Of a stretch of 64,000 bases of DNA, positions 37,342-60,511 are shown one piece after another. A model generated the notes under the pieces. The model made no database searches and was not told the origin of the DNA. It saw only the letters and a program-made list of their open reading frames with translations. The position numbers and the translations under genes were made by a program. The stretch is from an uncultured Lentimicrobiaceae bacterium (GTDB lineage: Bacteria; Bacteroidota; Bacteroidia; Bacteroidales; 4484-276). How positions within the stretch are numbered: position 1 is the first letter of the stretch; every line of letters starts with the position of its first letter. The stretch spans positions 15-64,014 of the forward strand of contig CAZGAO010000017.1 in NCBI GenBank assembly GCA_964523795.1, written 5' to 3'.

Positions 37342-37342
37342 G

Positions 37343-39131: not shown

Positions 39132-39158
39132 TTTAAAATTTAATAATTGGCAACAAAT

Positions 39159-44200: not shown

Positions 44201-45129
44201 CCGCCGAAATCACTCTCCCGACCAATGTGCCAACAGGTCAAAAGCGGATGCGTGTTCGCGCCCAATGGCAGAATAGTGCCATCGATCCCTGCGAAGACTG
44301 GAGCTATGGCGAAACCGAAGATTACACTGTGATTATTGGCCAGCCGCCTTATATGCCCCCACCCGTAAATCTTACGGCACAGCTTAGCGGCAACGATGTT
44401 AGCCTGAACTGGGATGAGCCCGAAAGACTAGAGATGCTTGGCTACAATGTATATCGCGATGGCGAAATGCTGGCACAGATGCTTACTGTAAATACCATGA
44501 TGGATGGGGATTGCCCCGATGGTAGCTACTGGTACGCGGTTACCTGCGTTTATGCCGAAGGGGAATCGGATCATTGCAGCCCGGTGCAGGTAAATATTGG
44601 CGACTTTGCGGGTAAGATCCAAGGCTTTGTGCGCGATGCCACCACCAACATCACCATCCAGGATGCCTGGGTTTCGGCCCTAAATGCTGACTTTGGCGCA
44701 GTAAATTACCAAACGCCTTTTGGCGGCCATTATACCTTGACTCTTCCGGGCGGAACTTATGATGTGGTGTGCCAGGCCAACGGTTATCAGGATTCCTTTG
44801 TGGAGAATGTTGTGCTGGAGGATTATGGCACACAAAGTATTAATTTCTATCTCCTTCCGGATACTTATGAGGAAATCCTTACCGGAATTATGGATGTTGA
44901 CAAAAAAGGTATTCAAATGTATCCCAATCCGGCTGATGACATTTTAAATCTGCGAATTTCGGCAAACAGCCAAATTCTTATTTTCAGCCATACCGGCCAA
45001 AAAGTATTAGCCCTGGTTAGTTTGACCGGCGAAGAAAAAATCAACTTAAACAGCTTTGAATCCGGCATTTATCTGGTTCGGATTATTTCGGGCAATCGCA
45101 GCTACCACGAAAAGCTGATTGTGAAATAG
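41254..45129 (+). CDS. peptidase C25 (gingipain-like cysteine peptidase) with GEVED, Fn3-like and CarbopepD_reg-like modules and T9SS CTD
   Basis: YVLLVGDWADI, YCGHGSSTSWG (catalytic His) and IFSVACVNGAY (catalytic Cys). RVRAQWQNSAIDPCEDWSYGETEDYTVII is a GEVED domain. GKIQGFVRDATTN...GGTYDVVCQANGYQ follows. C-terminus IQMYPNPADDILNLRI...GIYLVRII...KLIVK. Confidence 0.85.
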   Translation: MKNLFFTLLTLFAFQVLLAQKGFDVSYSYPDSRSIEIEFALDGYAVDDLSEAGVLYKQIISDMPLHSQKAGWAELPYMTAALQLDNLKNYSIQFVEGDWTDLHLNTPLLPSRGVIYRDQDPSAIPYQIDPASLVDRFYPAIECEMIEPYIIKDVRAATVMAYPFRYNAAKQTLRVYRSMTIRLVQNDEDPLNPLYQSQALPLREMIGIYQSAFINYEVPEDLTIADNGEILVITTARDETAMQPYIDWKTEKGFVVHKEVVATGTNVDNLVQSSYDANNNILYVLLVGDWADIKCANSGGTPQDPQTGCVVGSDNYFDISIGRLAAGSASDVSVQVNKIISYEKEPDMGASWYETSTGIASSQGTGDDGEYDNEHIQIIYDDKHEPFTYNLFNDIYDPVANTTMVSAALETGTSVINYCGHGSSTSWGSSGFSNSNIASLTNGSKLPIIFSVACVNGAYHSTYCFAEAWMNQNGGGAVATLMSTINQAWDPPMRGQDYFNDLLIGGYDYDAHPGQNGISTTEGRHSFGSIVFNGLVLMITESPGDLETANTWILFGDPAMQVRTATPASLTYSNNVMLVGTAFETNVYKAGVPMQGAMLALSQDGTTHSAISDASGFISIPNDFLPGDVQIVITGFNCETVYETIQCIPPTGPYVIFDTYVLNDVNGNNNGILEYFDGAVNLDFSMKNVGVENSVNVVVTISSDDPYITISDNSENFGTINAGEAVNVINAFAFEVAGDVPEGHSIMFDVVAVAEETWESTCAIMAYSALLEYESFIIDDSQGNNNGILDPGETASLVVSIANNGSADAFGVFGSLESLDSHVMVNSGEPQEFGDILGNQSGTATFSVTAVSSIPGGYIADLNLNFTADYGFAGTATFGLLFPDYCYGEGNCSYGDGITGFILKDIQNMDNGCSADNGLTGYGDFLDMSTQLEPGQSYTASFKTGYSNQYLCLWIDFDDDKEFETDERLISDLVLANANQVYTAEITLPTNVPTGQKRMRVRAQWQNSAIDPCEDWSYGETEDYTVIIGQPPYMPPPVNLTAQLSGNDVSLNWDEPERLEMLGYNVYRDGEMLAQMLTVNTMMDGDCPDGSYWYAVTCVYAEGESDHCSPVQVNIGDFAGKIQGFVRDATTNITIQDAWVSALNADFGAVNYQTPFGGHYTLTLPGGTYDVVCQANGYQDSFVENVVLEDYGTQSINFYLLPDTYEEILTGIMDVDKKGIQMYPNPADDILNLRISANSQILIFSHTGQKVLALVSLTGEEKINLNSFESGIYLVRIISGNRSYHEKLIVK

Positions 45130-45556: not shown

Positions 45557-46414
45557 ATGAAAAACTTAATAGGTGTCCTTTTCATGGCCTTTGTTTTCGT
45601 TGCCTGCCAACGCAGCTCTGAGCAAAGTACGCTGTCGCAGGATGGGCTGAAAGTAAGTTACAACGATCAGGGTAGCGGAGATACCGCCCTGGTTTTTGTG
45701 CACGGCTGGTCGTGTGATAAATCTTACTGGGAAAATCAAATACCGGCCTTTAGCGACCGTTACCGGGTAGTTACGCTGGATTATGGTGGCCATGGAAACT
45801 CAGGGTCAAACCGGGAGAACTTTACTATCGCTTCCTTTGGCAATGATGTAGTGGCTGTGGTTGAAAAACTCCATCTCGATCCGGTGATTCTTATCGGCCA
45901 TTCGATGGGTGGTGTGGTGATCGTGGATGCAGCTTCAAAAATACCTGATCGCGTATTGGCACTTGTGGGAGTGGATACTTATATTCAATTCAGCGATACT
46001 ACTTTTACAAGCGCGATGTTCAAGAGTTACACCGCACCTTTTTATCAAGATTTTCGCGGCCGCACCAAAAGTTTTGTGCGCGATATGTTCGCGGCCAATG
46101 CCGACACAACCCTGGTTAACCGGATTGCCAAAGATATGGCTTCGGCTGATAGCATTGTGGCCATGCAGGCTTTTGAGAGCATGTTCGGCTTTGGCGAGGA
46201 AATCGAGAATAAACTCCTCGAAATGAAAATTCCGGTTTATGCCGTAAATGCAGATTTGTGGCCAACAAATGAGGCTTATAACCGGAACATTGTGCCCGAC
46301 TTCAGCGTAAAATATATGAAGGGTTATGGCCATTTTATCATGCTCGAAAACACGGAACTTTTCAATCGATTGCTGCAAGAGACTATTGATGAGATGCAAG
46401 ATAAATTTGAATAA
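45557..46414 (+). CDS. alpha/beta hydrolase lipoprotein
   Basis: Lipobox FVFVAC; HG oxyanion motif (VFVHGW); nucleophile elbow GHSMGG; C-terminal GHF (catalytic His region). Confidence 0.8.
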   Translation: MKNLIGVLFMAFVFVACQRSSEQSTLSQDGLKVSYNDQGSGDTALVFVHGWSCDKSYWENQIPAFSDRYRVVTLDYGGHGNSGSNRENFTIASFGNDVVAVVEKLHLDPVILIGHSMGGVVIVDAASKIPDRVLALVGVDTYIQFSDTTFTSAMFKSYTAPFYQDFRGRTKSFVRDMFAANADTTLVNRIAKDMASADSIVAMQAFESMFGFGEEIENKLLEMKIPVYAVNADLWPTNEAYNRNIVPDFSVKYMKGYGHFIMLENTELFNRLLQETIDEMQDKFE

Positions 46415-46722: not shown

Positions 46723-47115
46723 ATGTTAGAACTAATTGCAATTACCGGAACGATATTGAGCCAAACGAAAAAGCTGATGGAAAACCCTGCCGTTGGCGAT
46801 GCCGTAAAAGGCGTGATCAACTGGGTTGGCGGCGTGCTGGGCAAGGATTCGGCACGGAAAAAGCTCCAGGAAATCGAAGCCGACCAGCACGATGAAGGAA
46901 CAATAAAGAGTATCGAGTCGAACCTGGAATATGTGCTCGAAGGTAACGAAGCCCTGCAAAAAGAGTTGGCTGCCAAAATTGAAGAACTGCAACAAATTGC
47001 TGCCCGCGAGGGGGTACCAATGGTTACCAAAACCAACACCATAACCATTACGGGCGATGGCAGCAAAGCCTTTCAGGATTTAAAAGTAGGCGGCGATTTT
47101 ACTTACAACGGATAA
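46723..47115 (+). CDS. small helical protein (130 aa), first gene of the six-gene cluster; possible adaptor
   Basis: Predicted all-alpha / coiled-coil centre (LQEIEADQHDEGTIKSIESNLEYVLEGNEALQKELAAKIEELQQ). The C-terminal ITITGDGSKAFQDLKVGGDFTYN motif is repeated at the N-terminus of the next protein. The stop lies 1 nt before the next ATG. Confidence 0.6.
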   Translation: MLELIAITGTILSQTKKLMENPAVGDAVKGVINWVGGVLGKDSARKKLQEIEADQHDEGTIKSIESNLEYVLEGNEALQKELAAKIEELQQIAAREGVPMVTKTNTITITGDGSKAFQDLKVGGDFTYNG

Positions 47116-47116
47116 T

Positions 47117-48352
47117 ATGAACGATAAGGATCATGCGCTTGCCGGGGAAGCTGCAACCAGCATAAGTGAAACGATAAAGCAAAACGCCATCACGAATAAT
47201 GGTGATGGAAATGTTGTTATGCAGGACATTACTGCCCGTGATATAACCATCAACATTGCCAGTGGTTTGCCGCCGGAGGTGAAGCAAAAAAAAGAAGAAC
47301 TTAAAGCAAGGGTTCAAAGCCTGGCAGATAATCTAAGCGTCCTCAAGGAGCAAATAGCACCTGCTGAAATCCCTGCAGATTTCGAGCCGCCCAGCGACCC
47401 TGCATATTCAAAAATTAAATGGCGTAAGCTTCTGCAAGCCTTGCAGCATAAAGGCTGTATTTTGTTTGTAGGCCCCGAAATAGCCATTAACGAACAGGGC
47501 AATTCGCTGCATCGCGAGTTTTATAAGGTGCTGACCGAGGACTTTGACGACATCGAATACCTGGAGCAGGAAGGTTTCTTCACTCCCGAATCCGATGAGG
47601 AAATTCTTTACGATGTGCTCGAATATTACTCCAAAGATTTTCCAACCCAAAACAAAATCGGGCGCAAGCTCTTGGAGCAGTTTGCACAAATTCCTTTCGA
47701 TCTGATCCTTTCGCTTTGCCCTGACGATACCATGCGTCGTATTTTTGAAGACTACGACCTGGAGCATCGCTTTCTGTTTTACGATGGCTCGAAGCAGGAA
47801 ATCGATGCCGCCGAAAACACAACGGTGATTTATAATGTGCTGGGCAATGCTGCCGACAATGGGCGATATATTTTTACGCACGAACAGTTTTATCAGTACC
47901 TCAACAAAATTATTATTCCCTCGGCTATCAAAAAGAAGATACAGGATGCCAGCCACTTTTTGTTTATCGGTTTCGATTTTGATAAATGGTACAATCGCTT
48001 GCTGCTTTTCATCCTCGATTTTGAGCAGAAGAGAAGCGGCGGCCATCGCCTGATTGTGGGCAACAAAAAGATAAAAGAAGATATCGAGAAATTTATCGAG
48101 AAGCAGTTCAACATCACTTTTGTGGATAACGAGTACTCCCAATTTATCGAATGGCTTTCGCTGAATGCAGCGCAGGAAGGACTTTTGCGAAATCTGAACC
48201 AGGTTTTTGTGCAGAATAATTTCAGGGCCTTGAAGTATATAAGCATCCGTGTAACCGATGATGATAAACTGGAAGATTTGCTGAAGATGGAAGAACTGAC
48301 CACTGCTATTGATCAAAAAATAGAACAATTCAAAAAACGAATACAAAACTAA
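47117..48352 (+). CDS. SIR2_2-like domain protein with divergent catalytic positions
   Basis: Colinear with the SIR2_2 layout: CILFVGPEIA (GAG loop), PFDLILSLCPDD (in place of iiTTNYD), IYNVLGN...RYIFTHEQFYQYL (in place of klHG...lvlTeedY), HFLFIGFDFDKW (in place of llfiGySlsD). N-terminal AITNNGDGNVVMQDITARDITIN motif. Confidence 0.55.
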   Translation: MNDKDHALAGEAATSISETIKQNAITNNGDGNVVMQDITARDITINIASGLPPEVKQKKEELKARVQSLADNLSVLKEQIAPAEIPADFEPPSDPAYSKIKWRKLLQALQHKGCILFVGPEIAINEQGNSLHREFYKVLTEDFDDIEYLEQEGFFTPESDEEILYDVLEYYSKDFPTQNKIGRKLLEQFAQIPFDLILSLCPDDTMRRIFEDYDLEHRFLFYDGSKQEIDAAENTTVIYNVLGNAADNGRYIFTHEQFYQYLNKIIIPSAIKKKIQDASHFLFIGFDFDKWYNRLLLFILDFEQKRSGGHRLIVGNKKIKEDIEKFIEKQFNITFVDNEYSQFIEWLSLNAAQEGLLRNLNQVFVQNNFRALKYISIRVTDDDKLEDLLKMEELTTAIDQKIEQFKKRIQN

Positions 48353-48353
48353 A

Positions 48354-50528
48354 ATGGGCATCCGACGATATCCGGGGGCAACGCCCTTTAGCAGCGATCA
48401 GGCCAGGATTTTTTATGGCCGCGACAGCGACATCCAAAAGATGCTCACCCTGATACAGGTGGAAAAAAAAGTTTTGCTTTACTCCAAATCGGGGCTGGGC
48501 AAAACCTCCCTCCTCGAGGCGGGCGTTATTCCAAAGCTGCCCATAAATTATATGCCCGTCAGCATTCGTCTTTTTGCCAGCACCAAAGATGCCGTTTCGC
48601 CGGTGGCCAGCGTGCGCCAGGCTTTGAAAAAAGTAATCGATGGTCTGGACAAACTCCCTGATACGCTCCTGGATCAACTGAAAGCGGATGACCAAAAAGA
48701 CAGCTCGTTGTGGTATCTTTTCAAAAAGTTGCAATTGGCCGGCTTGGACAAAAATGAAGAGGGTAAGCAGATAATATACCTGCTGGTTTTTGATCAGTTT
48801 GAAGAGCTTTTTTCCTATTCTCCTGCCCAGATTCTGGATTTCAAAAACCAACTTTACGAACTTACCGAGCAAAGGGTGCCCGACCGTTTTGCCGCACAAA
48901 TTGCTGCTGCACGGCGCAACAATAAAGAACTTTTTACGCGCGAAGCCCTGGCCACACTTCATCAGCGCATGGACATTAAAACGGTGTTCGCCATCCGCTC
49001 CGACCGTTTGAGTTTGCTCAACCAGCTCTCGGACAAAATTACCGACATCCAGCAGGTGTATCACGAAATAAAACCCCTGAGCAATACGCAGGCCATCGAG
49101 GCGGTGGTAAAACCTGCCGCAGACAAGGATACGGTTTTTGAAACCCGACCCTATACTTTTCATTCCGATGCGTTGGCTGCCATTATTCACAATCTTTCTA
49201 TCGATGAGAACGCTGCCGAAAAGTCGCAGAAGCCCATCGAAACCACACAGCTACAAATTGTATGTCATCGCATCGAGGAAGTTGCAGAGGCAAAATATCT
49301 AAAATTAGCAAATGCAAAGGCCGATACGGTAATCGAGATTGCAGAGAAGGATTTACCCAGTTTTTCAAATATCTTTTTGGATTTTTATAACGATTCTATC
49401 CAAAAGATCGAGGAGGGCAGTCGGGCTAATGCCAAACGCCTGATTGAAGATGAGCTGATACGAAGCAATCAAAGAATTTCGCTCGACGAGAATATTTGCA
49501 AAGATTTTATCAATGCTGACCAGCTTAAAAAACTTGTTGACACCCACCTGCTTCGTGCCGAGCGCAACAGTTTCGAGCGATTTAGCTTTGAGTTATGCCA
49601 CGACACGCTGGTAAATCCGATTCTGGAATCGCGCAAGCAATTTAAGGCCGAAGAACAAGAAAGGGTGCGTGAACTAAAGCGCAGAGCCGATTTGGAGGCA
49701 TTGAAGAAAAAACAGAAAGAAGAAAGACTGGCGCAGGAGGTTGAGATGAAACGCCTGAGAGAAGAGCAAGAACGCAAGGATAAAGAAAGGGTGCGCAAGC
49801 TGCGACAACAACGGATAATCACCGGCATCGTTGCATTTTTTCTACTGGTCTCACTTGGGCTGGGATATTGGGGTTACATTAATTTTTGTGAAGCCTCGGA
49901 GCAGCGCGACATCGCTCTTTTAAAAGAACAGGATGCACAGGGAAATCTGATCAATTTCATGGATGCCCAATATGATAATTATTTCGAGAATGCCCAAGGT
50001 GCCACCAAAGATGCAGATTATACGCTTGCAATTCAAAACTACTATGAGGCAATACCGTGGATTCACGCAAATATTGTTAGTGCCGTTGATACCGGAAGCG
50101 ACTGCAATATTTTTACTGTATTGTTTTCGTCTCAAGCCGAAGAAAATTATCTGAAGGAGCACAGCAAAATCTACCGCGCGCAAGAGGAATTAGCTATCAG
50201 CGATAGCTTGAGCAAAATGTTGGCGGTGATCGATGGTATAAAGTTTTGCGAGCGAAAAGCCTCCAAAAAAGCCACCATCGATAGCTTGCACAGGCAGGCA
50301 AACAGCTATATGCGAAAGCGCAATTATATAAAGGCACTCCAACTCTTCCGTGAGGCCTATCGCGAAGACGACAATATGCCGGGAAGCAAGCAAAAATTTA
50401 TTGATGCCAAAAAAGAAGCGGTGCGGATGTACGAAAAAAGCATGGATGATTACCGGGAAATTGGCGATCAGGCTGAATGGGAAAGAGCCGAAGACTTATT
50501 AGATCAGGTAAATTTGATACGATTGTAG
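48354..50528 (+). CDS. nSTAND-type (novel STAND) P-loop NTPase with coiled coil, one TM helix and a C-terminal helical-repeat domain
   Basis: RYPGATPFSSDQARIFYGRDSDIQKM...LLYSKSGLGKTSLLEAGVIPKL (nSTAND1-like N-terminus plus Walker A). LLVFDQFEELF (Walker B). Charged coiled coil KQFKAEEQERVRELKRRADLEALKKKQKEERL.... TM helix IITGIVAFFLLVSLGLGYWGYINF. TPR-like tail. Confidence 0.7.
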   Translation: MGIRRYPGATPFSSDQARIFYGRDSDIQKMLTLIQVEKKVLLYSKSGLGKTSLLEAGVIPKLPINYMPVSIRLFASTKDAVSPVASVRQALKKVIDGLDKLPDTLLDQLKADDQKDSSLWYLFKKLQLAGLDKNEEGKQIIYLLVFDQFEELFSYSPAQILDFKNQLYELTEQRVPDRFAAQIAAARRNNKELFTREALATLHQRMDIKTVFAIRSDRLSLLNQLSDKITDIQQVYHEIKPLSNTQAIEAVVKPAADKDTVFETRPYTFHSDALAAIIHNLSIDENAAEKSQKPIETTQLQIVCHRIEEVAEAKYLKLANAKADTVIEIAEKDLPSFSNIFLDFYNDSIQKIEEGSRANAKRLIEDELIRSNQRISLDENICKDFINADQLKKLVDTHLLRAERNSFERFSFELCHDTLVNPILESRKQFKAEEQERVRELKRRADLEALKKKQKEERLAQEVEMKRLREEQERKDKERVRKLRQQRIITGIVAFFLLVSLGLGYWGYINFCEASEQRDIALLKEQDAQGNLINFMDAQYDNYFENAQGATKDADYTLAIQNYYEAIPWIHANIVSAVDTGSDCNIFTVLFSSQAEENYLKEHSKIYRAQEELAISDSLSKMLAVIDGIKFCERKASKKATIDSLHRQANSYMRKRNYIKALQLFREAYREDDNMPGSKQKFIDAKKEAVRMYEKSMDDYREIGDQAEWERAEDLLDQVNLIRL

Positions 50529-50532
50529 CATT

Positions 50533-53500
50533 ATGAAAAAGATATTTATCATAGTATTTCTGCTTGGGATCACATTTTCGTTGCTTGCGCAGGAAAGCGA
50601 TTTTAAGCGGAATTTCGACAAGGCAAAGGTTCTTTTCGCAAGCGAAACGCCGAATTACATCAAGGCTTTTCAGTATTTCGACAAGGCCTACGACTGGGCT
50701 GTCAGCACAAGCGAAGAAGATTTGGCCATGGAATGGAAAAACAAATGCCGCGTAGCCATCCAAAAGCAACAAGCCAAATTGGAAATTACTATCGGGCAAA
50801 ACCAGGATATCATCGGAGCCTTTTATTTTTACGACAAAAAATTTGCCCTGGCCTTTAAGGATAACAAATACGGCTTTATCGATACCCTGGGACAGGCGGT
50901 AATTGGCTACAAATACGACGAGGGGCGACCCTTTGACAACTATGGCCTGGCTCGCGTAAAACGCAATAATCAATATTTTTTGCTCGACACCGCCAAAACC
51001 GAATATTTGCTTGCCGATGGTTTTAATCGCCTGGTGGCCGAAACGCAGGCACTCGACCTGAGCAATAAGCAGCTCAGCGAATTGCCCGAGCTGGTGCTAA
51101 AAATTCATGGATTGAATATCCTCATGCTGAGCGGGAATTTTATCCACCAAATACCTGAAGATATTGCATTGCTTGCGCAAATGAAGATGCTGATTTTGAA
51201 TAATAATTTATTGCGCCATTTACCCGATAGCATCGGGAAACTGCAAAATCTAATAGTGCTCGATGTAAGCGATAATCGTCTGGATTCACTGCCAGCTTCG
51301 ATGGGTGAATTGAGCGGTATGCGCAATTTTTATATGTCCAACAATTTTATAAGTCATGTCCCTTCCGGGATTCAAAATATGAGGCAGCTTACCAATCTCG
51401 ACCTAAGCAACAATCAAATTCGCACGCTGCCCACAGCATTGGGGCAACTCGAAGATTTGAAAACTTTGAAAGTAAATAATAATATACTCGAAGATGTTCC
51501 TGATATTGTTTTTAGCTTTACTGCTATTGAATATCTCGACCTGAGCGGGAATGCGATTAAAAATTTGCCTCCGGCAATCGAAAGGCTTGATGATTTGCTT
51601 AGCCTGGATATTAGCGGAAACAGTATCGAAAGCCTGCCCTCCGAAATCAGAAAGCTGGATCATCTGCAGGTATTATCTTTTGCTGGAAACCAGATAAGTG
51701 ATATCCCACCGCAGATTGGCGAACTTGATCAATTGAAAATACTGGATGCTTCTGAAAACGCCATCGGGGATTTACCCGATTCTTTTGAAAACCTGGATAA
51801 CTTAACGATGCTCGATTTGGGTGGCAACCGATTACAAGCGTTTCCTGATCACCTATTAAAAATCAAAGATTTAAAAATTTTAAAACTAAACAACAACAAT
51901 ATCCCAATTATTCCCAGCCAAATTCATCAGCTAAAAAAACTAAATACTTTTGATATTAGTCATAACAATCTTCGCATTGTTGCTCCTCAAATCGATTCGC
52001 TTACCCATCTTACCCGGCTCTTTTTGAATAATAATAAAATCGAACAACTGCCTGCCGGAATTAGCCAACTACTTTTGCTGGATGAACTGGATGTAAGCTA
52101 TAATAATCTTTCGGCCTTGCCTGCCGATTTTGATAATCTGGAGTACTTGCAGTGGCTAAATCTGAGTAATAACAAGTTTAGCCAATTTCCACCCGTGTTA
52201 ACAAATCTTTATGCTTTAAGCGATCTTGATATTTCCAACAATCAACTCACAAGCCTTGATGCGCAAATCGACCGAATGACCCGGTTAACGAAACTCAATG
52301 TTTCGGTAAATCAACTAAAAGAATTGCCCGCCAATATTGGAGGGCTGCATCACCTAAGGCATCTCAACGTTTCGGATAATCAGCTTAGCACATTACCACA
52401 GGATTTGGGAAAACTGAAAAAGCTGACTTATTTAAAACTAAATAATAATCAACTCGACACACTTCCTCTTGCCCTCTTTAATCTTGACGCATTAAGCACC
52501 TTGGTTGCCAGCAATAATCAAATCAGCACGCTGCTCAAACGCTTACCACACCTGACTAATCTTAGCCATATAGATTTACGCAACAACGCACTGGACACAA
52601 TCCCACGCGGATGGGCTTTGCTACCCAAATTGCAAGTGCTGGATCTGCGTGGCAATCCCAATCTAGATCTCAATACGCTGATACACGCTTTTAGCCTGTC
52701 AAGCAGGAAAATTATTATTTCGGCAGGCAAAAACGATTACAGTACACTGGTGGATGAAAACATTACACTGATAAAAATTGACCCACCGGCTTCGCTTCCT
52801 GCTAAATTGTATAAATTGAATAATTTGCTCCTGCTCGACATTCAGGGAGCCGAAGGCATAACTGTAGATAATATTTTGAATATTACCGAAAAGCAACGCA
52901 ACAAATTTGTTTATGCCAGCTCGGCCTTTCCTGATTTGAGCGACCGCAACAAGACGGTGATAAATATGGATGCAAGTCTTTTTTTGAAAATGCGACGAAA
53001 TACCCAAGTTCAAAACAATGAACTGGACTTATCCGGGGAAGCATTGGTAGATATTTCTTTTCCGTCAGCAACATTCAAAGATCTGGAACGCCTGAATTTA
53101 AGCAATACTGCGCTAAGAAAACTTCCTAACGACCTCTGGAAATTTAAAAACCTACGCTACCTTGATCTAAGCAAAAATGAACTCTCGGGCATCCTGCCTG
53201 GCGAAATTAAAAGCCTAAGCAGCTTGCACAGCCTGGATATCAGCGGCAATAATTTTTCAGACCTTCCATCTGAAATAGAGGATTTATCTCAGCTTAACAG
53301 TCTGCTGGCCAACAACAATAATTTTACACTGCTTCCGCAAACCATCGGCAATCTGCACAATCTAAAGTATTTAGTTTTGGATGACAATCCACTGGCTGCT
53401 CTTCCCGATTCGCTGGCCGCATTGAAAAACCTCAGCTATCTCAGCCTTAATATCGATAGCCTGACTATGATTCCCGATGACTTTGCAATCCTGGCAAACA

Positions 53501-53826
53501 TTGACGGCCTGAAAACGCTAAGCCTAAATGCCGGAGCTATGGCTAGCTTACCTGATGAGATCGGTCTGCTGCGCAATATCGAAGTGCTGTATATTACGGC
53601 TGATAATGCCGAAGAACTTACAGACCGGATTGGTGAGCTGGACAACTTAAGCGAATTGCATCTGTGGATGGAAAAACTAAAATCGCTGGCCGATGGCCTT
53701 GAAAATTTAAGTAAGCTCAAACGCTTACACGTAAATTCAAGCCTGCTAAACCAGGATTTGGAAAGCCTGGGGAAAGCTCTGCCCGATTGCGAAATAATTA
53801 TTGAAAACAAAATCACGCAGCCATGA
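50533..53826 (+). CDS. secreted leucine-rich repeat protein (~38 LRRs) with N-terminal WG/KWG-like repeats
   Basis: Signal peptide MKKIFIIVFLLGITFSLLAQ. YGFIDTLGQAVIGYKYDEGRPFDNYGLARVKRNNQYFLLD is WG-repeat-like. A long run follows of 23-aa LxxLxxLxLxxNxLxxLPxxI units. Confidence 0.85.
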   Translation: MKKIFIIVFLLGITFSLLAQESDFKRNFDKAKVLFASETPNYIKAFQYFDKAYDWAVSTSEEDLAMEWKNKCRVAIQKQQAKLEITIGQNQDIIGAFYFYDKKFALAFKDNKYGFIDTLGQAVIGYKYDEGRPFDNYGLARVKRNNQYFLLDTAKTEYLLADGFNRLVAETQALDLSNKQLSELPELVLKIHGLNILMLSGNFIHQIPEDIALLAQMKMLILNNNLLRHLPDSIGKLQNLIVLDVSDNRLDSLPASMGELSGMRNFYMSNNFISHVPSGIQNMRQLTNLDLSNNQIRTLPTALGQLEDLKTLKVNNNILEDVPDIVFSFTAIEYLDLSGNAIKNLPPAIERLDDLLSLDISGNSIESLPSEIRKLDHLQVLSFAGNQISDIPPQIGELDQLKILDASENAIGDLPDSFENLDNLTMLDLGGNRLQAFPDHLLKIKDLKILKLNNNNIPIIPSQIHQLKKLNTFDISHNNLRIVAPQIDSLTHLTRLFLNNNKIEQLPAGISQLLLLDELDVSYNNLSALPADFDNLEYLQWLNLSNNKFSQFPPVLTNLYALSDLDISNNQLTSLDAQIDRMTRLTKLNVSVNQLKELPANIGGLHHLRHLNVSDNQLSTLPQDLGKLKKLTYLKLNNNQLDTLPLALFNLDALSTLVASNNQISTLLKRLPHLTNLSHIDLRNNALDTIPRGWALLPKLQVLDLRGNPNLDLNTLIHAFSLSSRKIIISAGKNDYSTLVDENITLIKIDPPASLPAKLYKLNNLLLLDIQGAEGITVDNILNITEKQRNKFVYASSAFPDLSDRNKTVINMDASLFLKMRRNTQVQNNELDLSGEALVDISFPSATFKDLERLNLSNTALRKLPNDLWKFKNLRYLDLSKNELSGILPGEIKSLSSLHSLDISGNNFSDLPSEIEDLSQLNSLLANNNNFTLLPQTIGNLHNLKYLVLDDNPLAALPDSLAALKNLSYLSLNIDSLTMIPDDFAILANIDGLKTLSLNAGAMASLPDEIGLLRNIEVLYITADNAEELTDRIGELDNLSELHLWMEKLKSLADGLENLSKLKRLHVNSSLLNQDLESLGKALPDCEIIIENKITQP

Positions 53827-56800
53827 AAAATATATTCGAGACATTAATTGGTTTAAAAATACTGGCACTTGCGCTCATGCTTAATACCCTTGGGCTGAGC
53901 GCACAGGAACAAGCAGGGGCAAACCAAAACCAATCGTACGCTAAAGTCATAAAAAATATAAGCGAATGGTCGCAGGGAAAAATCACCGGTGCCAGAGTTC
54001 TTGAAATTATCGCGTTGCCCGTGGTGCAAAAGAAGTTGCCGATGAATCCAAACCGACTTTTGGGCGATACCATTTTTATCGTGCCCGAAATTGCGGTAGC
54101 AGCTTACGATCAAAACCAGATCAGCTTTCAATACTTCCCCGAAGATACTTTTTTTGAAGATTCGATACTAATTTCCTTTCCGCAAAATCCCGGCTGGATT
54201 ACGGGCAGCACGGTCGATTCAACAAGTTCGGAAATTGCCGTTAACATCCAAACCAACGCTTTGCCTGAGCCGCGATCAACGCCGGTGCGCATTCAGGGAA
54301 TCATAAATACAGATACGGTGGAATACACAGCCTATATTCTTCAGCAGGCACAGCAACAACAGTTTATCCTGGTGTTGCCACAATTCCTCACGCTGTCTCC
54401 CGAAGCAGCCTTAACAATCCCCATCGATATTACTACCATAAACGTAGATGGCTGGACGGCCATTTTTACTACAAACTGGATTTCGGTTGATTCAGCAAGT
54501 CTGACCAATCAAAGCATTCGTTTCGATGTGGCAGCCAACAACGGAAACAGCAGTCGCACGGCGACAATCGAAATTCAGGATATCGAAAATCCGGATATTG
54601 CTGCGCAAATTACGCTCACGCAAGAGGCTTCTTTTCTTGTGCTCGATCCGGCGCAGGTGCTGGTTCCCTGCGAGGGGGCAAATATTTTAGTAAATATTAG
54701 CAGCCTTAACGTGGATAGCATCGTGGTGGATGCAGGCGTTTTTTTTGGTACTGTACAAATTTTCAGCAACGATAGCCTTGCCCTTACTATCCCACCCAAT
54801 CCTGATGCCACAGCACGACAAGCAAGTATTTCGGTTTGTAGTTTTGATAATCCTGCAATTTGCGCCGAACTTGATGTTTTGCAATACAGTTGCAATCAGG
54901 CTTACATCGTAATAAGTCCGGCCTTTCATTCGGTGCCTTACGAAGGAGGGCTTAGTCCTGATTACTTTATCAACACCTCCAATGTGCCGACCTGGGAAGT
55001 TATTTTTGATAATGCAATTCCCTGGATTACGGATACGATTTTTGATGGCGGCAATTTGCGTTTTCAAGTAGCAGCAAACAGCGATGCTGCAAGCCGGTCG
55101 GCAACTTTTAAGGTACGCAGCACAAGCAATGGCGCAATCGTGGATTCGGCAGTTTTGTTTCAGGCTGGTGCTCCAATGCCGGTTATTTTAGCTTCGCCAC
55201 GCACACAAGTGGTAAGCCATCAGGGCAGCGACAGTGTGGATTTTATTATTACTTATCAAAATATCGATAGCTGGACTTTGGATAATGCCACCCTGCCTCC
55301 CTGGATAACTGTTGATGCCGCTGCCGGCAATTTGCTTAGTCTGGATGTGATGAGCAATAACAGTAATATCACGCGCAATGCGAATATCCGGATTTTTTCG
55401 CCTGCTACGCCCCAGGTTCGCGACAGCGTTTTTGTAGTTCAATATGCAGCTCCCGAGCAGGATTTGGTGGCAGCACCGCGCCAGCAATCACTGCCCTGGA
55501 CTGCTTCTCCTTCGGTGGCTTTTGCAGTAACTGCCGTTAATGTAGATCATTGGCTGGTGGATACCACCGCGCTACCAGCCTGGATAAATGTGGCCGTTTC
55601 GGGCGATGAAGTGCTCATGTTGGATGTGGAAGCCAACCTTTCGGCATCAACGCGTCAGGCAGTGATTTCGATTTTTGACTCGCTGCAAACCGAGGTGCGC
55701 GACTCGGTTTCGATTTATCAGTTTGCACAAACCGAAGCCTATCTGATTGCCTCGCCACGCGAAAAAAGATTGAGCCGATTGGGTGCCGAAAAAACTGATT
55801 TTGTAATTTCGAGAGCCAACGTGGAGAACTGGGAAACTGATGTTACGACCCTACCCTTATGGATAGAAGTGCTGAACGAGGGTAACGATACCCTGAGTTT
55901 GAAAATCACCGAAAACCCATCAATGCAAACCCGGAGTGCAAGCATCAGCATATTTGCAACGGAGGATACTACGGTTAGAGATTCGGTTTTTGTTTTTCAA
56001 TATGCTGCAAACGACACCGTGCTGATAGCCGCACCGCGCGAAGTGCTTCTGCCTGCCGAAGGAAGCCCTGCCGTTGATTTTGCGATTACCGCACTTTACG
56101 TGGATGCCTGGCGGGTGGACGAAGATATGCTGGCAGATTGGATTGAAGTGGTAAGCACGAGCGAGGATTCGCTGCGCATTAGCGTAAGTGCCAACGATAG
56201 CCCAGGTACACGCAGCGCAATGATTCAGATTTATGATACCTTGAATCGAAATATCAGCGACAGCTTATTTATTTATCAATACGCCACGCCGCAAGCCTAC
56301 ATACTTATATCTCCCCGGTCGGATACCTCGGGCTTTACCGGAAAAACTACCTCTTTCGATATTACTACCGTAAATATTTCGGGCGACTTATTTTTTGATG
56401 AAGCCTTGCTACCCGAATGGATTGAAGCGGAAATTGTAAATAATTTATTGAATGTGGAAATAAATCCCAACGGCAACTCTGCCACACGCGAAACCACGAT
56501 TGTAGTTTATGAGGATAACAATCCTGATATTCGCGATTCAGTTTTAGTGTATCAATATGCCCTGCCCGGGAAATATCTGTTGGCCGCGCCACGCGAACAA
56601 AGCGTGGGCCACGAGCCGGGCACCGCCTTATTCGATATTACCGCCGTGGGCATGGATACCTGGTTTGTGGACACCACCACACTTCCCGCCTGGATTCCCG
56701 AATACAGCATGATAGGGCAAAGCATTATGTTTTCTTATCAGGAAAATTTAAGCCTGCAAACCCGATCTGCAAGCATTCGCATATTTGCCGATTCGATGGC

Positions 56801-58790
56801 ATCGCCGGTAGAAGATTACGTTTCGATATATCAATATTCTAAGCTCGATTATTATTTGCTTGCTGCTCCCCGCGAACAAAATACCGGCCCGGATGCCGAC
56901 ACCTTATACTTTGTTGTGGATACAATAAATGTATCATCATGGCAGGCACAAATTCCCGGGGATGATTCTTCCTGGATTGAAATATTGATATCCGGGGCGG
57001 ATACACTGGCACTGGCCATTGCCGAAAACTCCGAAACCACCACCCGGCAAGGAAGCATCGCCCTGTTTTCGGCGGTCCATCCTGATGCCCACGATCAGGT
57101 TTCGGTTTATCAATATTCGGCCTCCGAGCCATACATTGCCCTCGACCGAACTTTTGAAGTAGTTCCTTACTCCGGCGATACCATCCAAGTTACACTCTAT
57201 TCAAATGTCGATTCCATTAGCATTTCCAAAGGCAACCAAAGTCCATGGTACGAAATACTTGGCGGGAATATTATTTCGCCGGTCAACAATACTTATACTT
57301 TTGGATTGAAAATCAGCCAAAACCCCGAGGCCTATCTTGCCCGCTCGGCATTTCTCGAAATCAACGCGCTCAATCTTCCGGATACCCTGGTTTCGGAGAA
57401 TTTTTACTTCCGTCAACTGATCAACCCCAATCTTAACAATATTCTTTTGTCGGGTTTTATCACCACCGATTCTGTCGGTTTACCTGCCGTGGACGTAATT
57501 GTGGGTGAGGACACCGTTTATAGTGCGCAAAGTGGGTACTTCCAACGATCCTTGCCTTATGGATGGGTGGGTGCAGTAACGCCGCTTAAGGCCGATTACT
57601 ATTTCGAGCCACCCAATTATGTTTTCGAAACGTCGCAAAAAGCAGACAACGATACAGTGAATTTTAATGCTTTTTTAATCAATCCTACCATTGCCTTTAA
57701 TATTGAAAACGATACGATTTCGATTTGTCCGGGTGCGGCGATTAATCGCAATTCGCCAGAATATCCTTCTTTCGATATTTCGGGAACCTTTGGAGCACGA
57801 AGCTACTGGTGGTTTTCCAATCCGCCCGACCCGCAGCTCAATACCGATACCACCGAAACACCGGCATGGCAGGTATTTTCGCCAACAGTTACCACGCGCT
57901 ATTCGCTTGTGCTGTATAATTATGGTACTGCCGATACCAGCACTTTCACGCTTGGGGTTTATCCCCTTCCCGAGGCTCGCATCATCAGCGGACCGGACAA
58001 GGTGTGTAAAAACCAGGCGGGACTTATTTATTCGGTAAGCGAATTTTTGCCCGGCGAAACTTTTTCGTGGGAACTGTGGAAGGATTCGTTACTGCTAAAT
58101 ACCTGGCAGAGCAATATTGCCGTCATCGACTTTGGCAGCGATGCAGGGTCTTATGAGTTGGTGCTGAAAACATTCAATAAATATGGATGCAGCAGTTCGC
58201 GTAGTATGCAGATAGAGATGGCCAACACAGAGGCACCGCCAGCCACCACGGTTAATAAGAAAAGTGGCGATAATATGCTGGTGTGTACCGATACCGATGC
58301 CACGCGCTACCATTATTCCTGGGGCTGGTACACTATTAATGATGCGGGGATGCTCGATGAAGCCCATATTATTCCTGACCGAAAGGATTGGTTTTGCCGC
58401 CTGCCCGAAAATCACACCTTCGACCCGATAAAGTACAAATACTTTGTGCAAATGACCTTTGCCGATGATAGTTCCTGCGCCTCGCTGTCGTTTTTAAATG
58501 GCAATGCTCCGGTGAAGATTGATGAAGCAAATAGCCAGCCCTTTACCGTTTTCCCAAATCCTTCATCCGGGCAGTTGTACCTGCGCTTTGCAGCTGATTT
58601 TGGAGGAATGTCGGTGCGTACAATTTTGCTCAACAGCGCGGGGCAGAGGATATTTAGTCGAGTTTTCGATCGGGGAGTTTCAGGGCAGGTTTTACTTATT
58701 GACAATAGCGACATTTTAGAGCCAGGAATTTACCTGCTTAGAACCGAAATTGCCGGGACATTTTATAATACTAAAATAGTGGTGCAGTAA
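53823..58790 (+). CDS. 1655-aa secreted protein: ~11 BACON-like repeats plus T9SS C-terminal sorting domain
   Basis: Signal peptide ...LGLSAQ. A ~100-aa repeat recurs, ending in (T/S)R(S/Q)A.I.I(F/Y)......(V/I)RDSV.(V/I)YQYA. C-terminus FTVFPNPSSGQLYLRF...GIYLLRTEIAGTFYNTKIVVQ. ATGA overlap with the LRR gene. Confidence 0.8.
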   Translation: MKNIFETLIGLKILALALMLNTLGLSAQEQAGANQNQSYAKVIKNISEWSQGKITGARVLEIIALPVVQKKLPMNPNRLLGDTIFIVPEIAVAAYDQNQISFQYFPEDTFFEDSILISFPQNPGWITGSTVDSTSSEIAVNIQTNALPEPRSTPVRIQGIINTDTVEYTAYILQQAQQQQFILVLPQFLTLSPEAALTIPIDITTINVDGWTAIFTTNWISVDSASLTNQSIRFDVAANNGNSSRTATIEIQDIENPDIAAQITLTQEASFLVLDPAQVLVPCEGANILVNISSLNVDSIVVDAGVFFGTVQIFSNDSLALTIPPNPDATARQASISVCSFDNPAICAELDVLQYSCNQAYIVISPAFHSVPYEGGLSPDYFINTSNVPTWEVIFDNAIPWITDTIFDGGNLRFQVAANSDAASRSATFKVRSTSNGAIVDSAVLFQAGAPMPVILASPRTQVVSHQGSDSVDFIITYQNIDSWTLDNATLPPWITVDAAAGNLLSLDVMSNNSNITRNANIRIFSPATPQVRDSVFVVQYAAPEQDLVAAPRQQSLPWTASPSVAFAVTAVNVDHWLVDTTALPAWINVAVSGDEVLMLDVEANLSASTRQAVISIFDSLQTEVRDSVSIYQFAQTEAYLIASPREKRLSRLGAEKTDFVISRANVENWETDVTTLPLWIEVLNEGNDTLSLKITENPSMQTRSASISIFATEDTTVRDSVFVFQYAANDTVLIAAPREVLLPAEGSPAVDFAITALYVDAWRVDEDMLADWIEVVSTSEDSLRISVSANDSPGTRSAMIQIYDTLNRNISDSLFIYQYATPQAYILISPRSDTSGFTGKTTSFDITTVNISGDLFFDEALLPEWIEAEIVNNLLNVEINPNGNSATRETTIVVYEDNNPDIRDSVLVYQYALPGKYLLAAPREQSVGHEPGTALFDITAVGMDTWFVDTTTLPAWIPEYSMIGQSIMFSYQENLSLQTRSASIRIFADSMASPVEDYVSIYQYSKLDYYLLAAPREQNTGPDADTLYFVVDTINVSSWQAQIPGDDSSWIEILISGADTLALAIAENSETTTRQGSIALFSAVHPDAHDQVSVYQYSASEPYIALDRTFEVVPYSGDTIQVTLYSNVDSISISKGNQSPWYEILGGNIISPVNNTYTFGLKISQNPEAYLARSAFLEINALNLPDTLVSENFYFRQLINPNLNNILLSGFITTDSVGLPAVDVIVGEDTVYSAQSGYFQRSLPYGWVGAVTPLKADYYFEPPNYVFETSQKADNDTVNFNAFLINPTIAFNIENDTISICPGAAINRNSPEYPSFDISGTFGARSYWWFSNPPDPQLNTDTTETPAWQVFSPTVTTRYSLVLYNYGTADTSTFTLGVYPLPEARIISGPDKVCKNQAGLIYSVSEFLPGETFSWELWKDSLLLNTWQSNIAVIDFGSDAGSYELVLKTFNKYGCSSSRSMQIEMANTEAPPATTVNKKSGDNMLVCTDTDATRYHYSWGWYTINDAGMLDEAHIIPDRKDWFCRLPENHTFDPIKYKYFVQMTFADDSSCASLSFLNGNAPVKIDEANSQPFTVFPNPSSGQLYLRFAADFGGMSVRTILLNSAGQRIFSRVFDRGVSGQVLLIDNSDILEPGIYLLRTEIAGTFYNTKIVVQ

Positions 58791-58798
58791 AAACGAGG

Positions 58799-60511
58799 AT
58801 GAATATGAAGAAATTCGTTTGGATCATAAGTTTTATGTTTTTGATATTTGCCTTGCCGGGATATGGCCAGCACAACCCGACCGAAAAAGTTGCGCAGGCA
58901 CGTCTGCTGCTCAACGACCACCGGGATGCTTCGCATTTTGTCAGCACCAGCCCCGGTGCTTTCGATCCGGTGTGGGAAAGCATGTTCAAAAATTGCGTCC
59001 TGGCCAAAAACATCATTTTTGATATTCCGCTTAAGACGGAGAAGTTTGCCTCCGATCATCCACTTAGCACCTCCTATCTTAATTATGTTTCGGTGGATCG
59101 CTACCTGGAATTGATTCGTAAGCTCTATCAGGAATTTAGCCTAAGCAAAATTGATTTTCAATATCAGGAAACCGGTGTAGATTTAAGTCGTTTGGACAGT
59201 GATAGCATCTTGGTTTTTGAAATCGAAAAACGTTTTGAAGAAAGCCCGGTTTTTAGAAGGGATGTACGAAAATACCTGCTGGAGGTTTCGTTTATAAACG
59301 ATAATCCCAAAATTACAGCCGTCCGCCTTAATGATGTGCCTCAGGTAAAAAATGAGGTGGTGCTTGTGCTCGACATGAAGGATGTTGGCAAGCGGAAGCC
59401 ACAGAATCCCAAAGATATCTACACCATTATCGCTGACCTTACCATCGATTTTGATGAGGATATTTACGATCGGAAACTTACCGAGCAATTTGATCATTTT
59501 GGCAAGATCAATCTCGGCTTCCTATCCAACAGAGCAAAAGTGCGTATTGATCATGTTTATGGAAAAAATGGTGAAAAATTCAGCATTCCGCCCGACTGGA
59601 AAAGCGAGGGCAAAAGTGTGAATCTTCAGCCCGTGGGCGGCTTTCGTGTCGGGCTAAAACCCTACATCTGGAAGGGCTATTCGATCACCTTTGGCCTCGA
59701 AGGCGGGGCAGTGCTTTTATCAAAAAACAATACGGCCCATTTTTCGGATGACAGCGATTTCAAAAATCATCCGGGATTTAGCTTTGGTGCGGGGGCACAT
59801 ATTACCCGATTTTTAAATCCTGAAAACTGGCGTAAAAATTATGGCAGTTGGATTTACGGCTTTGGACTTGGGCTTAGCTTTCACGCCATACAGTATCGCG
59901 TCTCTGCTTCGCAATTCAGCCAGCACCCCTATCCATTTACTGATCTTGTAGGCGATAGCTCTCTGGTACATTTTGCGGGCAATCAGTTCGATGAAATCAT
60001 CCAGACCTACGCTATTAAAATACCCGCCTACATAGAGATTCGAAAAAAAACAATCCCCCGTTTTGGCTTGCGGTCGCTTTCGCTGCAGGCCGGCGTTAAT
60101 GTGATGATACCGGTTCAAAAAGAATATGATGCCGAAGGATTCTTTTCACGTTTTGGTCAGTATCCACAATACAATAACCAGCTTATTACCGATGACGAAT
60201 TTTATAATTATTATGATAAAAAAGATAAGGATTATTCCGGCACCGTGTCGTACAATGCCTTCCAGTTTGAAGGGATGGTAAAAATGAATGCCTTTTTCAA
60301 ACTGGATAACAGGTTTCCTGACCATTCGCTGGTGGTGAGTCTGGTGGCTTCTTTCCCCTTTAGCCGTTCTACATCTTCCAGCCCTAATGATTACTTTATC
60401 AATACCGGCGATGACCTATACTACAGCCTAGCCCAGTCGCGCGACAGGATATACGATTATTATTTTGGGTTGGGTGTGGGTATTAATTTTATCAATTATA
60501 AAGTAGAATGA
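58799..60511 (+). CDS. hypothetical secreted / outer-membrane protein (570 aa), last gene of the cluster
   Basis: Signal peptide MNMKKFVWIISFMFLIFALPGYGQ. The C-terminal half has an alternating beta-strand-like pattern (GFGLGLSFHAIQY, YFGLGVGINFINYKVE). Starts 9 nt after the preceding stop. Confidence 0.6.
   Translation: MNMKKFVWIISFMFLIFALPGYGQHNPTEKVAQARLLLNDHRDASHFVSTSPGAFDPVWESMFKNCVLAKNIIFDIPLKTEKFASDHPLSTSYLNYVSVDRYLELIRKLYQEFSLSKIDFQYQETGVDLSRLDSDSILVFEIEKRFEESPVFRRDVRKYLLEVSFINDNPKITAVRLNDVPQVKNEVVLVLDMKDVGKRKPQNPKDIYTIIADLTIDFDEDIYDRKLTEQFDHFGKINLGFLSNRAKVRIDHVYGKNGEKFSIPPDWKSEGKSVNLQPVGGFRVGLKPYIWKGYSITFGLEGGAVLLSKNNTAHFSDDSDFKNHPGFSFGAGAHITRFLNPENWRKNYGSWIYGFGLGLSFHAIQYRVSASQFSQHPYPFTDLVGDSSLVHFAGNQFDEIIQTYAIKIPAYIEIRKKTIPRFGLRSLSLQAGVNVMIPVQKEYDAEGFFSRFGQYPQYNNQLITDDEFYNYYDKKDKDYSGTVSYNAFQFEGMVKMNAFFKLDNRFPDHSLVVSLVASFPFSRSTSSSPNDYFINTGDDLYYSLAQSRDRIYDYYFGLGVGINFINYKVE

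Follow-up and report, generated by a model that had tools for sequence, protein, structure and literature searches.

A cassette of six genes (46723-60511, + strand) is described here in a 64,000-nt stretch of contig CAZGAO010000017.1 from an uncultured Lentimicrobiaceae bacterium (assembly GCA_964523795.1, positions 15 to 64,014), hereafter the window. Its center is an nSTAND1 ATPase gene that is followed by a gene for an exported protein with leucine-rich repeats (LRRs). The ATPase seems to be a bacterial relative of the NOD-like immune ATPases of animals and plants that is located in the inner membrane, and the exported LRR protein seems to act as its sensor. With moderate confidence, we regard this operon-like cassette as the Bacteroidales version of a widespread Bacteroidota system of the conflict type that signals from outside to inside around the membrane-anchored nSTAND1 ATPase, and for which we infer docking, a ligand and an output. 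The system probably detects threats outside the cytoplasm. To our knowledge, all experimentally characterized bacterial STAND/NLR-like defense proteins recognize their triggers in the cytoplasm and on a single chain. The family to which the cassette belongs (at least 527 relatives in species-representative genomes, mostly Bacteroidota) is predicted to put classical STAND sensors outside the cytoplasm, often as separately exported subunits. To specialists, it would come as a surprise that STAND switches whose sensors are exported and exchangeable form a large family.

Residues 6-275 of the ATPase match the Pfam family nSTAND1 (PF20703) with 83.1 bits compared to a gathering score of 27.1. A homologue search with the ATPase yielded 1018 matches at E <= 1e-5, the best 120 of which were analysed, and PF20703 is present in all 120. 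The Walker A motif reads GLGKTS (G47, G49, K50, S52) and the Walker B motif VFDQFEE (D147, E150). These residues as well as the sensor residue R215 are invariant across the 120 homologues. The AlphaFold2 model has a predicted local distance difference test (pLDDT) value of 88 overall and mostly >90 in the core, and Foldseek matches of this model comprise ORC/Cdc6, NLRC4 and Avs4. Sequence and fold are consistent with a competent, cytoplasmic ATPase with intact Walker motifs, whose oligomerization would be ligand-induced and nucleotide-dependent. As assumed in the initial annotation, the ATPase has no signal peptide: Its N-terminus (MGIRRYPGATPF...) is non-hydrophobic, and an N-terminal hydrophobic segment was found in none of the 120 homologues. 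The highly charged coiled coil, which had been proposed to follow the ATPase domain, is likewise present. It comprises 65 residues with 24 Lys/Arg and 16 Asp/Glu, and aa 417-469 are modeled by AlphaFold2 as one long helix followed by a low-confidence stretch (468-487).

The ATPase contains only one hydrophobic region that exceeds a Kyte-Doolittle value of 1.6 over 19-mers (residues 488-511, maximum 2.08). This single helix, initially assigned to nt 49815-49885, maps to nt 49815-49886. In 114 of the 120 homologues a helix occurs at the same place, with one helix in 107 and several in seven cases, and always 25-115 residues past the end of the ATPase core. A survey of the 80 best loci plus earlier ones provided 71 distinct ATPase genes, 69 of which encode the helix. 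According to the positive-inside rule, the positively charged flank of a transmembrane helix marks its cytoplasmic side. The flanks of the window helix carry 8 Lys/Arg on the N-terminal and 2 on the C-terminal side, and in all 114 helix-bearing homologues the 15 residues before the helix contain more Lys plus Arg than the 15 residues after it (means of 6.75 and 2.92, respectively). Because of this excess on the N-terminal flank, the ATPase is predicted to face the inside and the tail the outside. As the helix recurs at the same place in 114/120 homologues with a charge bias in 114/114, it is more than a chance hydrophobic segment. Hydropathy, the positive-inside rule and conservation within the family agree in predicting that the tail, together with the LRR protein, would be found outside the cytoplasm. 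The topology proposed initially is upheld by both the family-wide helix with its fixed charge bias and the typical signal peptide of the LRR protein.

The adjacency of membrane STAND and exported partner recurs. Close homologues at 46-58% identity display the same six-gene order in unrelated genomic flanks. To survey the family more broadly, ATPases were divided into short (<750 aa) and long (>=850 aa) ones, and a partner was defined as a co-directional open reading frame (ORF) of >=200 aa that follows at a distance of -60 to +150 nt. Among the short ATPases with enough downstream sequence, 42 of 47 have such an ORF, and for 37 of 47 it has a signal-peptide-like start. By contrast, only 2 of the 19 long ATPases have a signal-peptide partner (Fisher p = 3.7e-7). 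This difference, together with the cassettes at 46-58% identity in unrelated flanks, shows that the adjacency to exported proteins is recurrent; a lack of recurrence in other genomes would have spoken against the initial proposal. Gln directly after the cleavage site is a habit of Bacteroidota signal peptidase I substrates, and a small residue followed by Gln was found near the predicted cleavage position in 39 of 40 partner N-termini. A Pfam search with ten partners revealed WD40 beta-propellers in eight and DUF2610 in one, while one had no match. LRR partners occur in about a dozen loci, among them those of the window clade. In most relatives, the exported sensor is thus a WD40 and not an LRR protein.

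The part of the long ATPases beyond the helix contains WD40 repeats in 12 of 20 and an FGE-sulfatase domain in 5 of 20 cases, and LRRs in others. Since partners and long tails carry the same domains, the same sensor repertoire is located beyond the helix, either fused or split. Two homologues, P0061 and P0077, represent natural single-chain fusions with the order nSTAND1, helix, coiled coil, WG and LRR. From the WG repeat on, P0061 is colinear with residues 109-251 of the window LRR protein (32% identity, E 5e-21). The P0077 locus (L087) has retained p130 and the SIR2-like gene (see below), and it has no separate LRR, BACON or p570 gene. Both the C-terminal tail domain of the window ATPase and the N-terminal 90 residues of the LRR protein are absent from the fusions. 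The rule for short and long ATPases and the natural fusions support the reading that a STAND sensor has been split off and exported; signaling from outside to inside would follow from analogy. Sensor repeats at the C-terminus of the same chain, which are typical but not strictly defining of STAND proteins, are not found in the window ATPase, as the LRRs reside on a separate protein.

The 213-residue tail of the window ATPase is a candidate for the surface to which the LRR protein docks. AlphaFold2 predicts it to be all-helical with a pLDDT >90 over most of residues 540-724. A Pfam TPR_2 match at residues 644-674 (E 3e-4) is below the cut-off, and a TPR-like hairpin, NYIKALQLFREAY, is located at aa 657-669. 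The approximately 200 aa of helical repeats that had been placed outside the cytoplasm agree with this tail in length and predicted helical nature, and the charge bias predicts the same location; the TPR_2 match is weak. Among the 19 closest homologues, 17 retain each of the three cysteines C512, C584 and C632, and C632 is found in 71 of all 120. Conserved Cys residues in the tail fit an oxidizing compartment, but are no proof of it.

On the other side, the partners share a module of approximately 90 residues after the signal peptide, which consists of a TPR-like hairpin, often between two Cys, and a subsequent coiled coil. The module of the window partner has one conserved Cys, C72. A hidden Markov model built from Saprospiraceae-type partners matches the partner N-termini (~aa 15-110) and, more weakly, ATPase tails; it matched none of the fused long tails. 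A jackhmmer search from LRR protein residues 20-105 recovers the partner N-termini (aa ~20-110) of other loci. In addition, 9 of 13 residues are identical between the tail hairpin NYIKALQLFREAY and NYIKAFQYFDKAY in the N-terminal module of the LRR protein. A like-with-like pairing of adaptors was proposed for cytoplasmic EADs (Kaur et al., PMC7159879); by analogy, such a pairing would operate in the periplasm here. Two to four tandem exported genes with the partner module were observed in L059 (4358-16946), L043 (11607-17167), L060 (9947-12428) and L024 (7346-10056). As these loci have several partner genes each, alternative sensor subunits may be swapped on one membrane STAND.

The 1097-aa LRR protein starts with a signal peptide that is typical of Bacteroidota, with a KK n-region and a hydrophobic maximum of 2.09 at residues 1-22. 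Pfam detects WG_beta_rep at residues 113-148 (E 4e-9) and LRR_14 (E 1.5e-85). With a strict regular expression, 22 repeats in a row are detected between aa 194 and 677, all with a period of exactly 23 residues, and at least six more in a second block at aa 851-993. The initially predicted export of this protein is supported by the signal peptide. The count of ~38 LRRs is only reached when degenerate repeats are included: at least 28 LRRs are clear. The WG-LRR region is the presumed ligand-binding sensor in the periplasm.

The most constant neighbor of the ATPase gene, which was not part of the initial annotation, encodes the SIR2-like protein, a homologue of which was found directly upstream in 64 of the 71 relatives. 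In L048 (1714-5749), a SIR2-like-TIR gene is located downstream and not upstream of a long (853-aa) membrane STAND. The window protein matches Pfam SIR2_2 (E 7.8e-9, 36 bits vs a cut-off of 24.5), and a SIR2_2 match was obtained for 63 of the 64 upstream family members. With a profile of these 64 sequences, the PDB structures of ThsA and KomC are reached (1e-6 to 1e-5); with the single window sequence, no match was found in the PDB. In an HMMER alignment to 6lhx, the column of ThsA N112 is occupied by T, S or C. At the position of ThsA H152, none of the 64 members has a His; the column contains F, L or other residues, with L242 in the window protein. The GAG loop is replaced by G-P. An active SIR2 NADase was considered as effector and rejected because the canonical catalytic Asn and His are missing, and for the same reason the SIR2-like protein was not filed as an active NADase. 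Among the 64 SIR2-like proteins of the relatives, 35 carry EAD11, 11 TIR and two EAD7. In addition, some loci contain separate EAD11-TIR or EAD11-CHAT proteins, or TIR/CHAT genes just upstream. A Pfam EAD was not detected in the window cassette. We interpret the SIR2-like protein as a constant hub through which outputs would be brought to the ATPase. This recurrent hub with a catalytically degenerate domain, combined with EAD11, TIR or a short amyloid-like motif, might provide a clue to effector recruitment.

The short motif concerns p130, the small helical protein encoded by the first gene of the cassette. Its last ~27 residues, TKTNTITITGDGSKAFQDLKVGGDFTY, resemble residues 21-46 of the SIR2-like protein, KQNAITNNGDGNVVMQDITARDITIN. 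The local alignment of this shared motif of ~25 residues yields a score of 50 with z = 6.4 relative to shuffled sequences in the window and z values of 4.6-8.1 in the other p130-bearing loci L001-L009 and L011. In all these loci and in L087, p130 is kept directly upstream of the SIR2-like gene, and the motif is present in L087, too. SIR2-like proteins without p130 upstream also lack the motif-bearing N-terminal extension. For p130, no match was found in Pfam, NCBIfam, PADLOC or the PDB. An assignment of p130 to EACC1 was rejected, as there is neither a Pfam match nor a central transmembrane helix.

From these data, the following mechanism can be proposed. The exported LRR protein would dock via its N-terminal module onto the periplasmic tail of the ATPase and bind a periplasmic or surface-derived ligand, which might be an envelope-crossing phage component, a secreted attack protein or a sign of envelope damage. 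Ligand binding would rearrange the tails, and this rearrangement would be relayed via the transmembrane helix and the charged coiled coil to cause nucleotide-dependent oligomerization of the ATPase. Oligomerization would in turn cluster the SIR2-like protein and activate the output, which may be TIR or CHAT in relatives. In the window, the output would probably be p130, via shared-motif templating, and perhaps the SIR2-like domain itself. If this model is right, a single transmembrane helix is enough for NLR-type switches to respond to signals from outside the cytoplasm, and the coupling of external ligand binding to STAND oligomerization inside could be studied in a tractable bacterial system.

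The interpretation as a conflict system is based on the TIR, CHAT and EAD11 modules in the relatives, and a role in defense or cell death would be in line with them. Several points weigh against the proposed model. The direction of signaling is assumed by analogy with other STAND proteins. The proposed docking of tail and partner draws on their co-occurrence, their loss on fusion and a weak sequence similarity. The ATPase has no N-terminal adaptor to account for binding of the SIR2-like protein. Furthermore, the window cassette contains, as judged by sequence, no demonstrably active effector, because the canonical catalytic Asn and His are missing from the SIR2-like domain of every one of the 64 members. 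With a 7-sequence profile of p130, neither Pfam (E < 0.05) nor the PDB (E < 0.4) yielded a match, and p130 has no detectable homology to a known toxin. When the first four products of the cassette (p130, SIR2-like protein, ATPase and LRR protein) were compared with the PADLOC-DB 2.0 models, zero families were found (E <= 0.01). A defense-island setting is not obvious either: GmrSD is the only defense gene nearby, and the other neighbors are housekeeping or two-component genes. Finally, a scan of viral contigs found no relatives of the ATPase. Due to the missing PADLOC match, defense island and demonstrably active effector, the conflict-system interpretation is weakened.

Some of these observations would also suit a non-immune trans-envelope device. 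In such a device, the ATPase switch might steer an envelope or surface structure made up of the LRR or WD40 scaffold, the outer-membrane barrel and the BACON adhesin from inside to outside, e.g. in adhesion, gliding or polysaccharide capture, or it might belong to an outside-in receptor without a cell-death output. The SIR2-like domain devoid of canonical catalytic residues as well as the lack of a PADLOC match and of a clear defense-island setting are in accord with this, as is the location of the cassette next to a gene for a C25 peptidase of the type IX secretion system (T9SS). Moreover, BACON, PKD, T9SS and LRR proteins are typical Bacteroidota surface proteins. We nevertheless consider a non-immune device unlikely, since the TIR, CHAT and EAD11 modules on the cytoplasmic side of relatives are characteristic of conflict and cell-death systems, and C-terminal repeats of STAND proteins serve as sensors and not as outputs. 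BACON and p570 cannot constitute the core function because they are found in one clade only; neither most of the relatives nor the fused variant have them.

Transmembrane helices are effectors in several bacterial defense systems, so that the hydrophobic helix itself might damage the membrane when clustered upon oligomerization, and the LRR gene would then encode an unrelated exported protein. Six of the 120 homologues are devoid of the helix, a few have very short tails, and the two-helix variants L022 and L039 combine a short tail with the lack of an exported partner, all of which could be accommodated by a helix effector. The position of the helix makes this idea improbable: It is located C-terminally of the ATPase, where sensors sit, and in the long forms it is followed by large folded WD40, FGE and LRR domains. 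The short forms have instead signal-peptide partners with the same repertoire and a dedicated N-terminal module, and no cytoplasmic sensor domain would be left in the ATPase. That the LRR and ATPase genes are neighbors by chance or mere synteny and lack any functional link is scarcely credible. Exported LRR proteins are indeed common in Bacteroidota and gene order can persist by descent in close relatives, but here the two genes have stayed together in unrelated flanks although the proteins are only 46-58% identical, and distant clades show the same pattern with other types of sensor. In addition, the genes abut or overlap at their stop and start codons, and fused proteins exist. We therefore retain the conflict-type system with a membrane-anchored nSTAND1 ATPase and an exported sensor as the preferred interpretation.

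The nSTAND1 family and the EADs were defined by Kaur, Burroughs, Iyer and Aravind (eLife 2021, PMC8195603; eLife 2020, PMC7159879). The nSTAND1-centered and EAD-coupled conflict systems described there resemble the cassette family in the NTPase family, in the WD40, LRR, TPR and FGE/FGS sensors, in the TIR, CHAT and SIR2 effector repertoire of its relatives, and in the enrichment in filamentous or gliding Bacteroidota. The EAD adaptor logic is also shared by the relatives, where both the SIR2-like protein and separate TIR or CHAT proteins carry EAD11. In contrast to these systems, the sensor of the cassette family is located beyond a transmembrane helix, often on a separate signal-peptide protein with a docking module, and the constant SIR2-like domain lacks catalytic residues. 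Furthermore, the window has no Pfam-detectable EAD; instead, the motif of ~25 residues is common to p130 and the SIR2-like protein. The combination of a SIR2-like hub, a single-helix nSTAND1 protein and a separately exported sensor with a docking module was not found described in the main texts searched, supplementary data aside.

The general idea of extracytoplasmic STAND sensing is not unprecedented, because transmembrane STAND proteins have been mentioned in passing before. Transmembrane STAND/NACHT proteins with predicted periplasmic sensing appear in a supplementary discussion (Kibby et al., bioRxiv 10.1101/2022.07.19.500537), the DGR 3 locus was reported to encode a NACHT protein whose NACHT and CLec domain is predicted to be periplasmic (Dore et al., 2024, PMC10907252), and "Transmembrane STAND ATPases" were named by Evans et al. 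(bioRxiv 10.1101/2025.11.14.688446). They share with the window protein a membrane-joined STAND ATPase and a sensor (e.g. CLec/FGE) predicted to be periplasmic. However, they belong to NACHT or other clades and are single fused chains, some of them with multiple transmembrane segments, and are presented without experiments. The cassette family is distinguished from them by a single helix, a split exported sensor, a conserved docking module and a constant SIR2-like partner.

Among the cytoplasmic systems, Avs1-5 and bNACHT have a similar STAND fold (Foldseek matches to Avs4 and NLRC4) and the same logic with the effector on the N-terminal and the sensor on the C-terminal side. Unlike the cassette family, Avs and bNACHT proteins are single chains that recognize phage proteins inside the cytoplasm. 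The pairing of a SIR2-like with a STAND protein is reminiscent of SIR2-STAND fusions, and the SIR2_2 domain is related to those of Thoeris ThsA and KomC, which both have the catalytic Asn/His missing in the cassette family. The layout of p130 and the SIR2-like protein is reminiscent of the Bell/Bab-BASS pairs (Dyrka et al., bioRxiv 10.1101/2020.01.06.895854; Ibarlosa et al., bioRxiv 10.1101/2024.11.07.622273): In both cases, a small helical protein with a hydrophobic N-terminus has a C-terminal motif of ~25 residues that is repeated at the N-terminus of the adjacent product. Here, however, the motif partner is a SIR2-like protein and not a STAND protein, p130 has no detectable homology to Bell/Bab proteins, and an amyloid property of the motif is putative. 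Toll-like receptors can be mentioned as an analogy only. They share extracytoplasmic LRRs, one membrane helix and, with some relatives, a cytoplasmic TIR output. There is no homology of the whole architecture, a STAND ATPase is interposed, the LRRs are on a separate chain, and no TIR is encoded in the window cassette.

The two genes downstream of the LRR gene are confined to the Bacteroidales-type cassette. The 1655-aa product of the first one has a signal-peptide-like N-terminus, multiple BACON domains (E 5e-37) and a PKD-like domain (PKD_6). The Por_Secre_tail match of this protein (E 3.5e-4, 21.2 bits) is below the cut-off of 27, and the homologues at the same position in L001, L003 and L005 list Por_Secre_tail (PF18962) without a mark as weak. 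The protein is probably displayed at the cell surface. In the second product, p570, a signal peptide precedes an N-terminal alpha/beta domain, and the C-terminal part is predicted to form an outer-membrane beta-barrel. Its AlphaFold2 model (pLDDT 78, from a shallow alignment of 8 sequences) contains strands of 9-35 residues over residues 289-567, and Foldseek places only outer-membrane barrels among its top PDB matches (OmpA, porins, autotransporter barrels and OmpW), several of them with a probability of 1.00. At the level of this model, p570 can be counted among the barrels. p570 matches neither Pfam nor NCBIfam families, and a search for homologues yielded only 8. Proteins of 557-590 aa were called at the p570 position in L001, L003 and L005, a correspondence in size and position only.

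The BACON protein and p570 would occupy the cell surface and the outer membrane, so that the six proteins would span every compartment of the envelope, and through the predicted p570 barrel and the BACON protein, a putative T9SS cargo, sensing may reach as far as the cell surface. A further idea is that all six products form one envelope-spanning immune receptor consisting of the T9SS-displayed BACON protein, the outer-membrane barrel, the periplasmic LRR protein, the inner-membrane STAND ATPase and, as cytoplasmic outputs, the SIR2-like hub and p130, which would be activated by templating of the shared amyloid-like motif. That the six proteins act as one chain is speculation, and we consider the complete receptor possible, if doubtful. 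If it existed, phage or contact-dependent attack would be detected at or inside the envelope before a foreign molecule enters the cytoplasm. In that case, the family could be likened to surface pattern-recognition receptors, as bacterial counterparts in which exported WD40 or LRR subunits dock interchangeably on a common membrane STAND protein.

The six ORFs, whose stops and starts abut or overlap, form one cassette (Table 1). The initial annotation had proposed a two-gene sensor pair of ATPase and LRR protein; both genes belong to the unit, which is larger and comprises all six.

Table 1. Genes of the cassette and predicted parts of their products (nt positions in the window; aa positions in the respective protein).
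Feature	Position (nt)	Strand	Description
p130, small helical protein	46723-47115	+	130 aa; hydrophobic N-terminal segment MLELIAITGTIL; candidate second effector or regulator
p130 C-terminal motif	47029-47109	+	aa 103-129, ~25 residues
SIR2-like protein	47117-48352	+	411 aa; begins 1 nt past p130, stops 1 nt short of ATPase gene
Parts of SIR2-like protein	47117-48352	+	shared motif aa 21-46 (nt 47177-47254), coiled-coil linker, SIR2_2-like Rossmann domain aa ~105-335
nSTAND1 ATPase	48354-50528	+	724 aa
nSTAND1 NTPase core with helical and winged-helix module	48354-49619	+	aa 1-422, predicted cytoplasmic
Charged helix/coiled coil	49620-49814	+	aa 423-487, linker between ATPase and membrane
Single predicted transmembrane helix, N-in/C-out	49815-49886	+	aa 488-511, IITGIVAFFLLVSLGLGYWGYINF
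Predicted extracytoplasmic helical tail	49887-50525	+	aa 512-724, 213 residues; candidate docking surface
Exported LRR protein	50533-53826	+	1097 aa
Signal peptide	50533-50589	+	aa 1-19, MKKIFIIVFLLGITFSLLA then QE
Partner N-terminal module	50590-50847	+	aa 20-105; TPR-like hairpin and short coiled coil
WG repeats, then two LRR blocks	50857-53826	+	WG aa ~109-160; LRR aa ~171-700 and ~848-1075
BACON protein, putative T9SS cargo, probably at the surface	53823-58790	+	1655 aa; start overlaps LRR gene stop by 4 nt
p570, predicted outer-membrane barrel	58799-60511	+	570 aa; last cassette gene

The closest named relatives of the ATPase originate from Bacteroidales and Lentimicrobiaceae metagenome-assembled genomes (MAGs). 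In the scan of one genome per species, the relatives were mostly found in Saprospiraceae, Lewinellaceae, Cytophagales, Chitinophagaceae and Bacteroidales, with a few in Acidobacteriota and one in a Brocadia MAG. Across the family, the parts following the helix vary and comprise a helical tail of ~100-235 residues, FGE-sulfatase, WD40, WG + LRR, 4HB_MCP and an ABC-2-type membrane domain. The ATPase module has been joined to C-terminal parts beyond WD40, LRR and FGE: In P0060 the tail is replaced by a 4HB_MCP chemoreceptor-type sensor, P0081, P0090 and P0092 have a six-helix ABC-2-type membrane domain in place of the tail, and the helix-less P0099 carries a SpoIIE/PP2C phosphatase domain instead. 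The variants L022 (731-3278) and L039 (9971-12470) from Acidobacteriota MAGs have two helices, a tail of 30-40 residues and no exported partner, and the gene downstream of them encodes a cytoplasmic EAD11-TIR protein.

The p130 gene is preceded by an AT-rich spacer of 308 nt, and the gene 3' of the cassette is convergent. A sigma-70 scan found fewer promoter-like sites than in shuffled sequences; such a scan is uninformative for Bacteroidota promoters. When the setting of the cassette was checked, no tRNA genes were found. A LytTR-type two-component pair (His_kinase, then Response_reg + LytTR; 36271-38098), for which no link to the cassette was seen, is located in the part of the window with the lowest GC content. 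The gene for the GmrSD-type restriction endonuclease (39147-40850; GmrSD_N E 2.6e-27, GmrSD_C E 1.6e-13) belongs to a stretch of low GC content (0.33-0.37 across 36-42 kb) and is separated from the cassette by ~6 kb on the upstream side. A further gene encodes a gingipain-like protein of 1291 aa (41254-45129), which contains a C25 propeptide and peptidase, GEVED, CarboxypepD_reg and a T9SS sorting domain. Between this gene and the cassette, a signal-peptide alpha/beta hydrolase is encoded (45557-46414).

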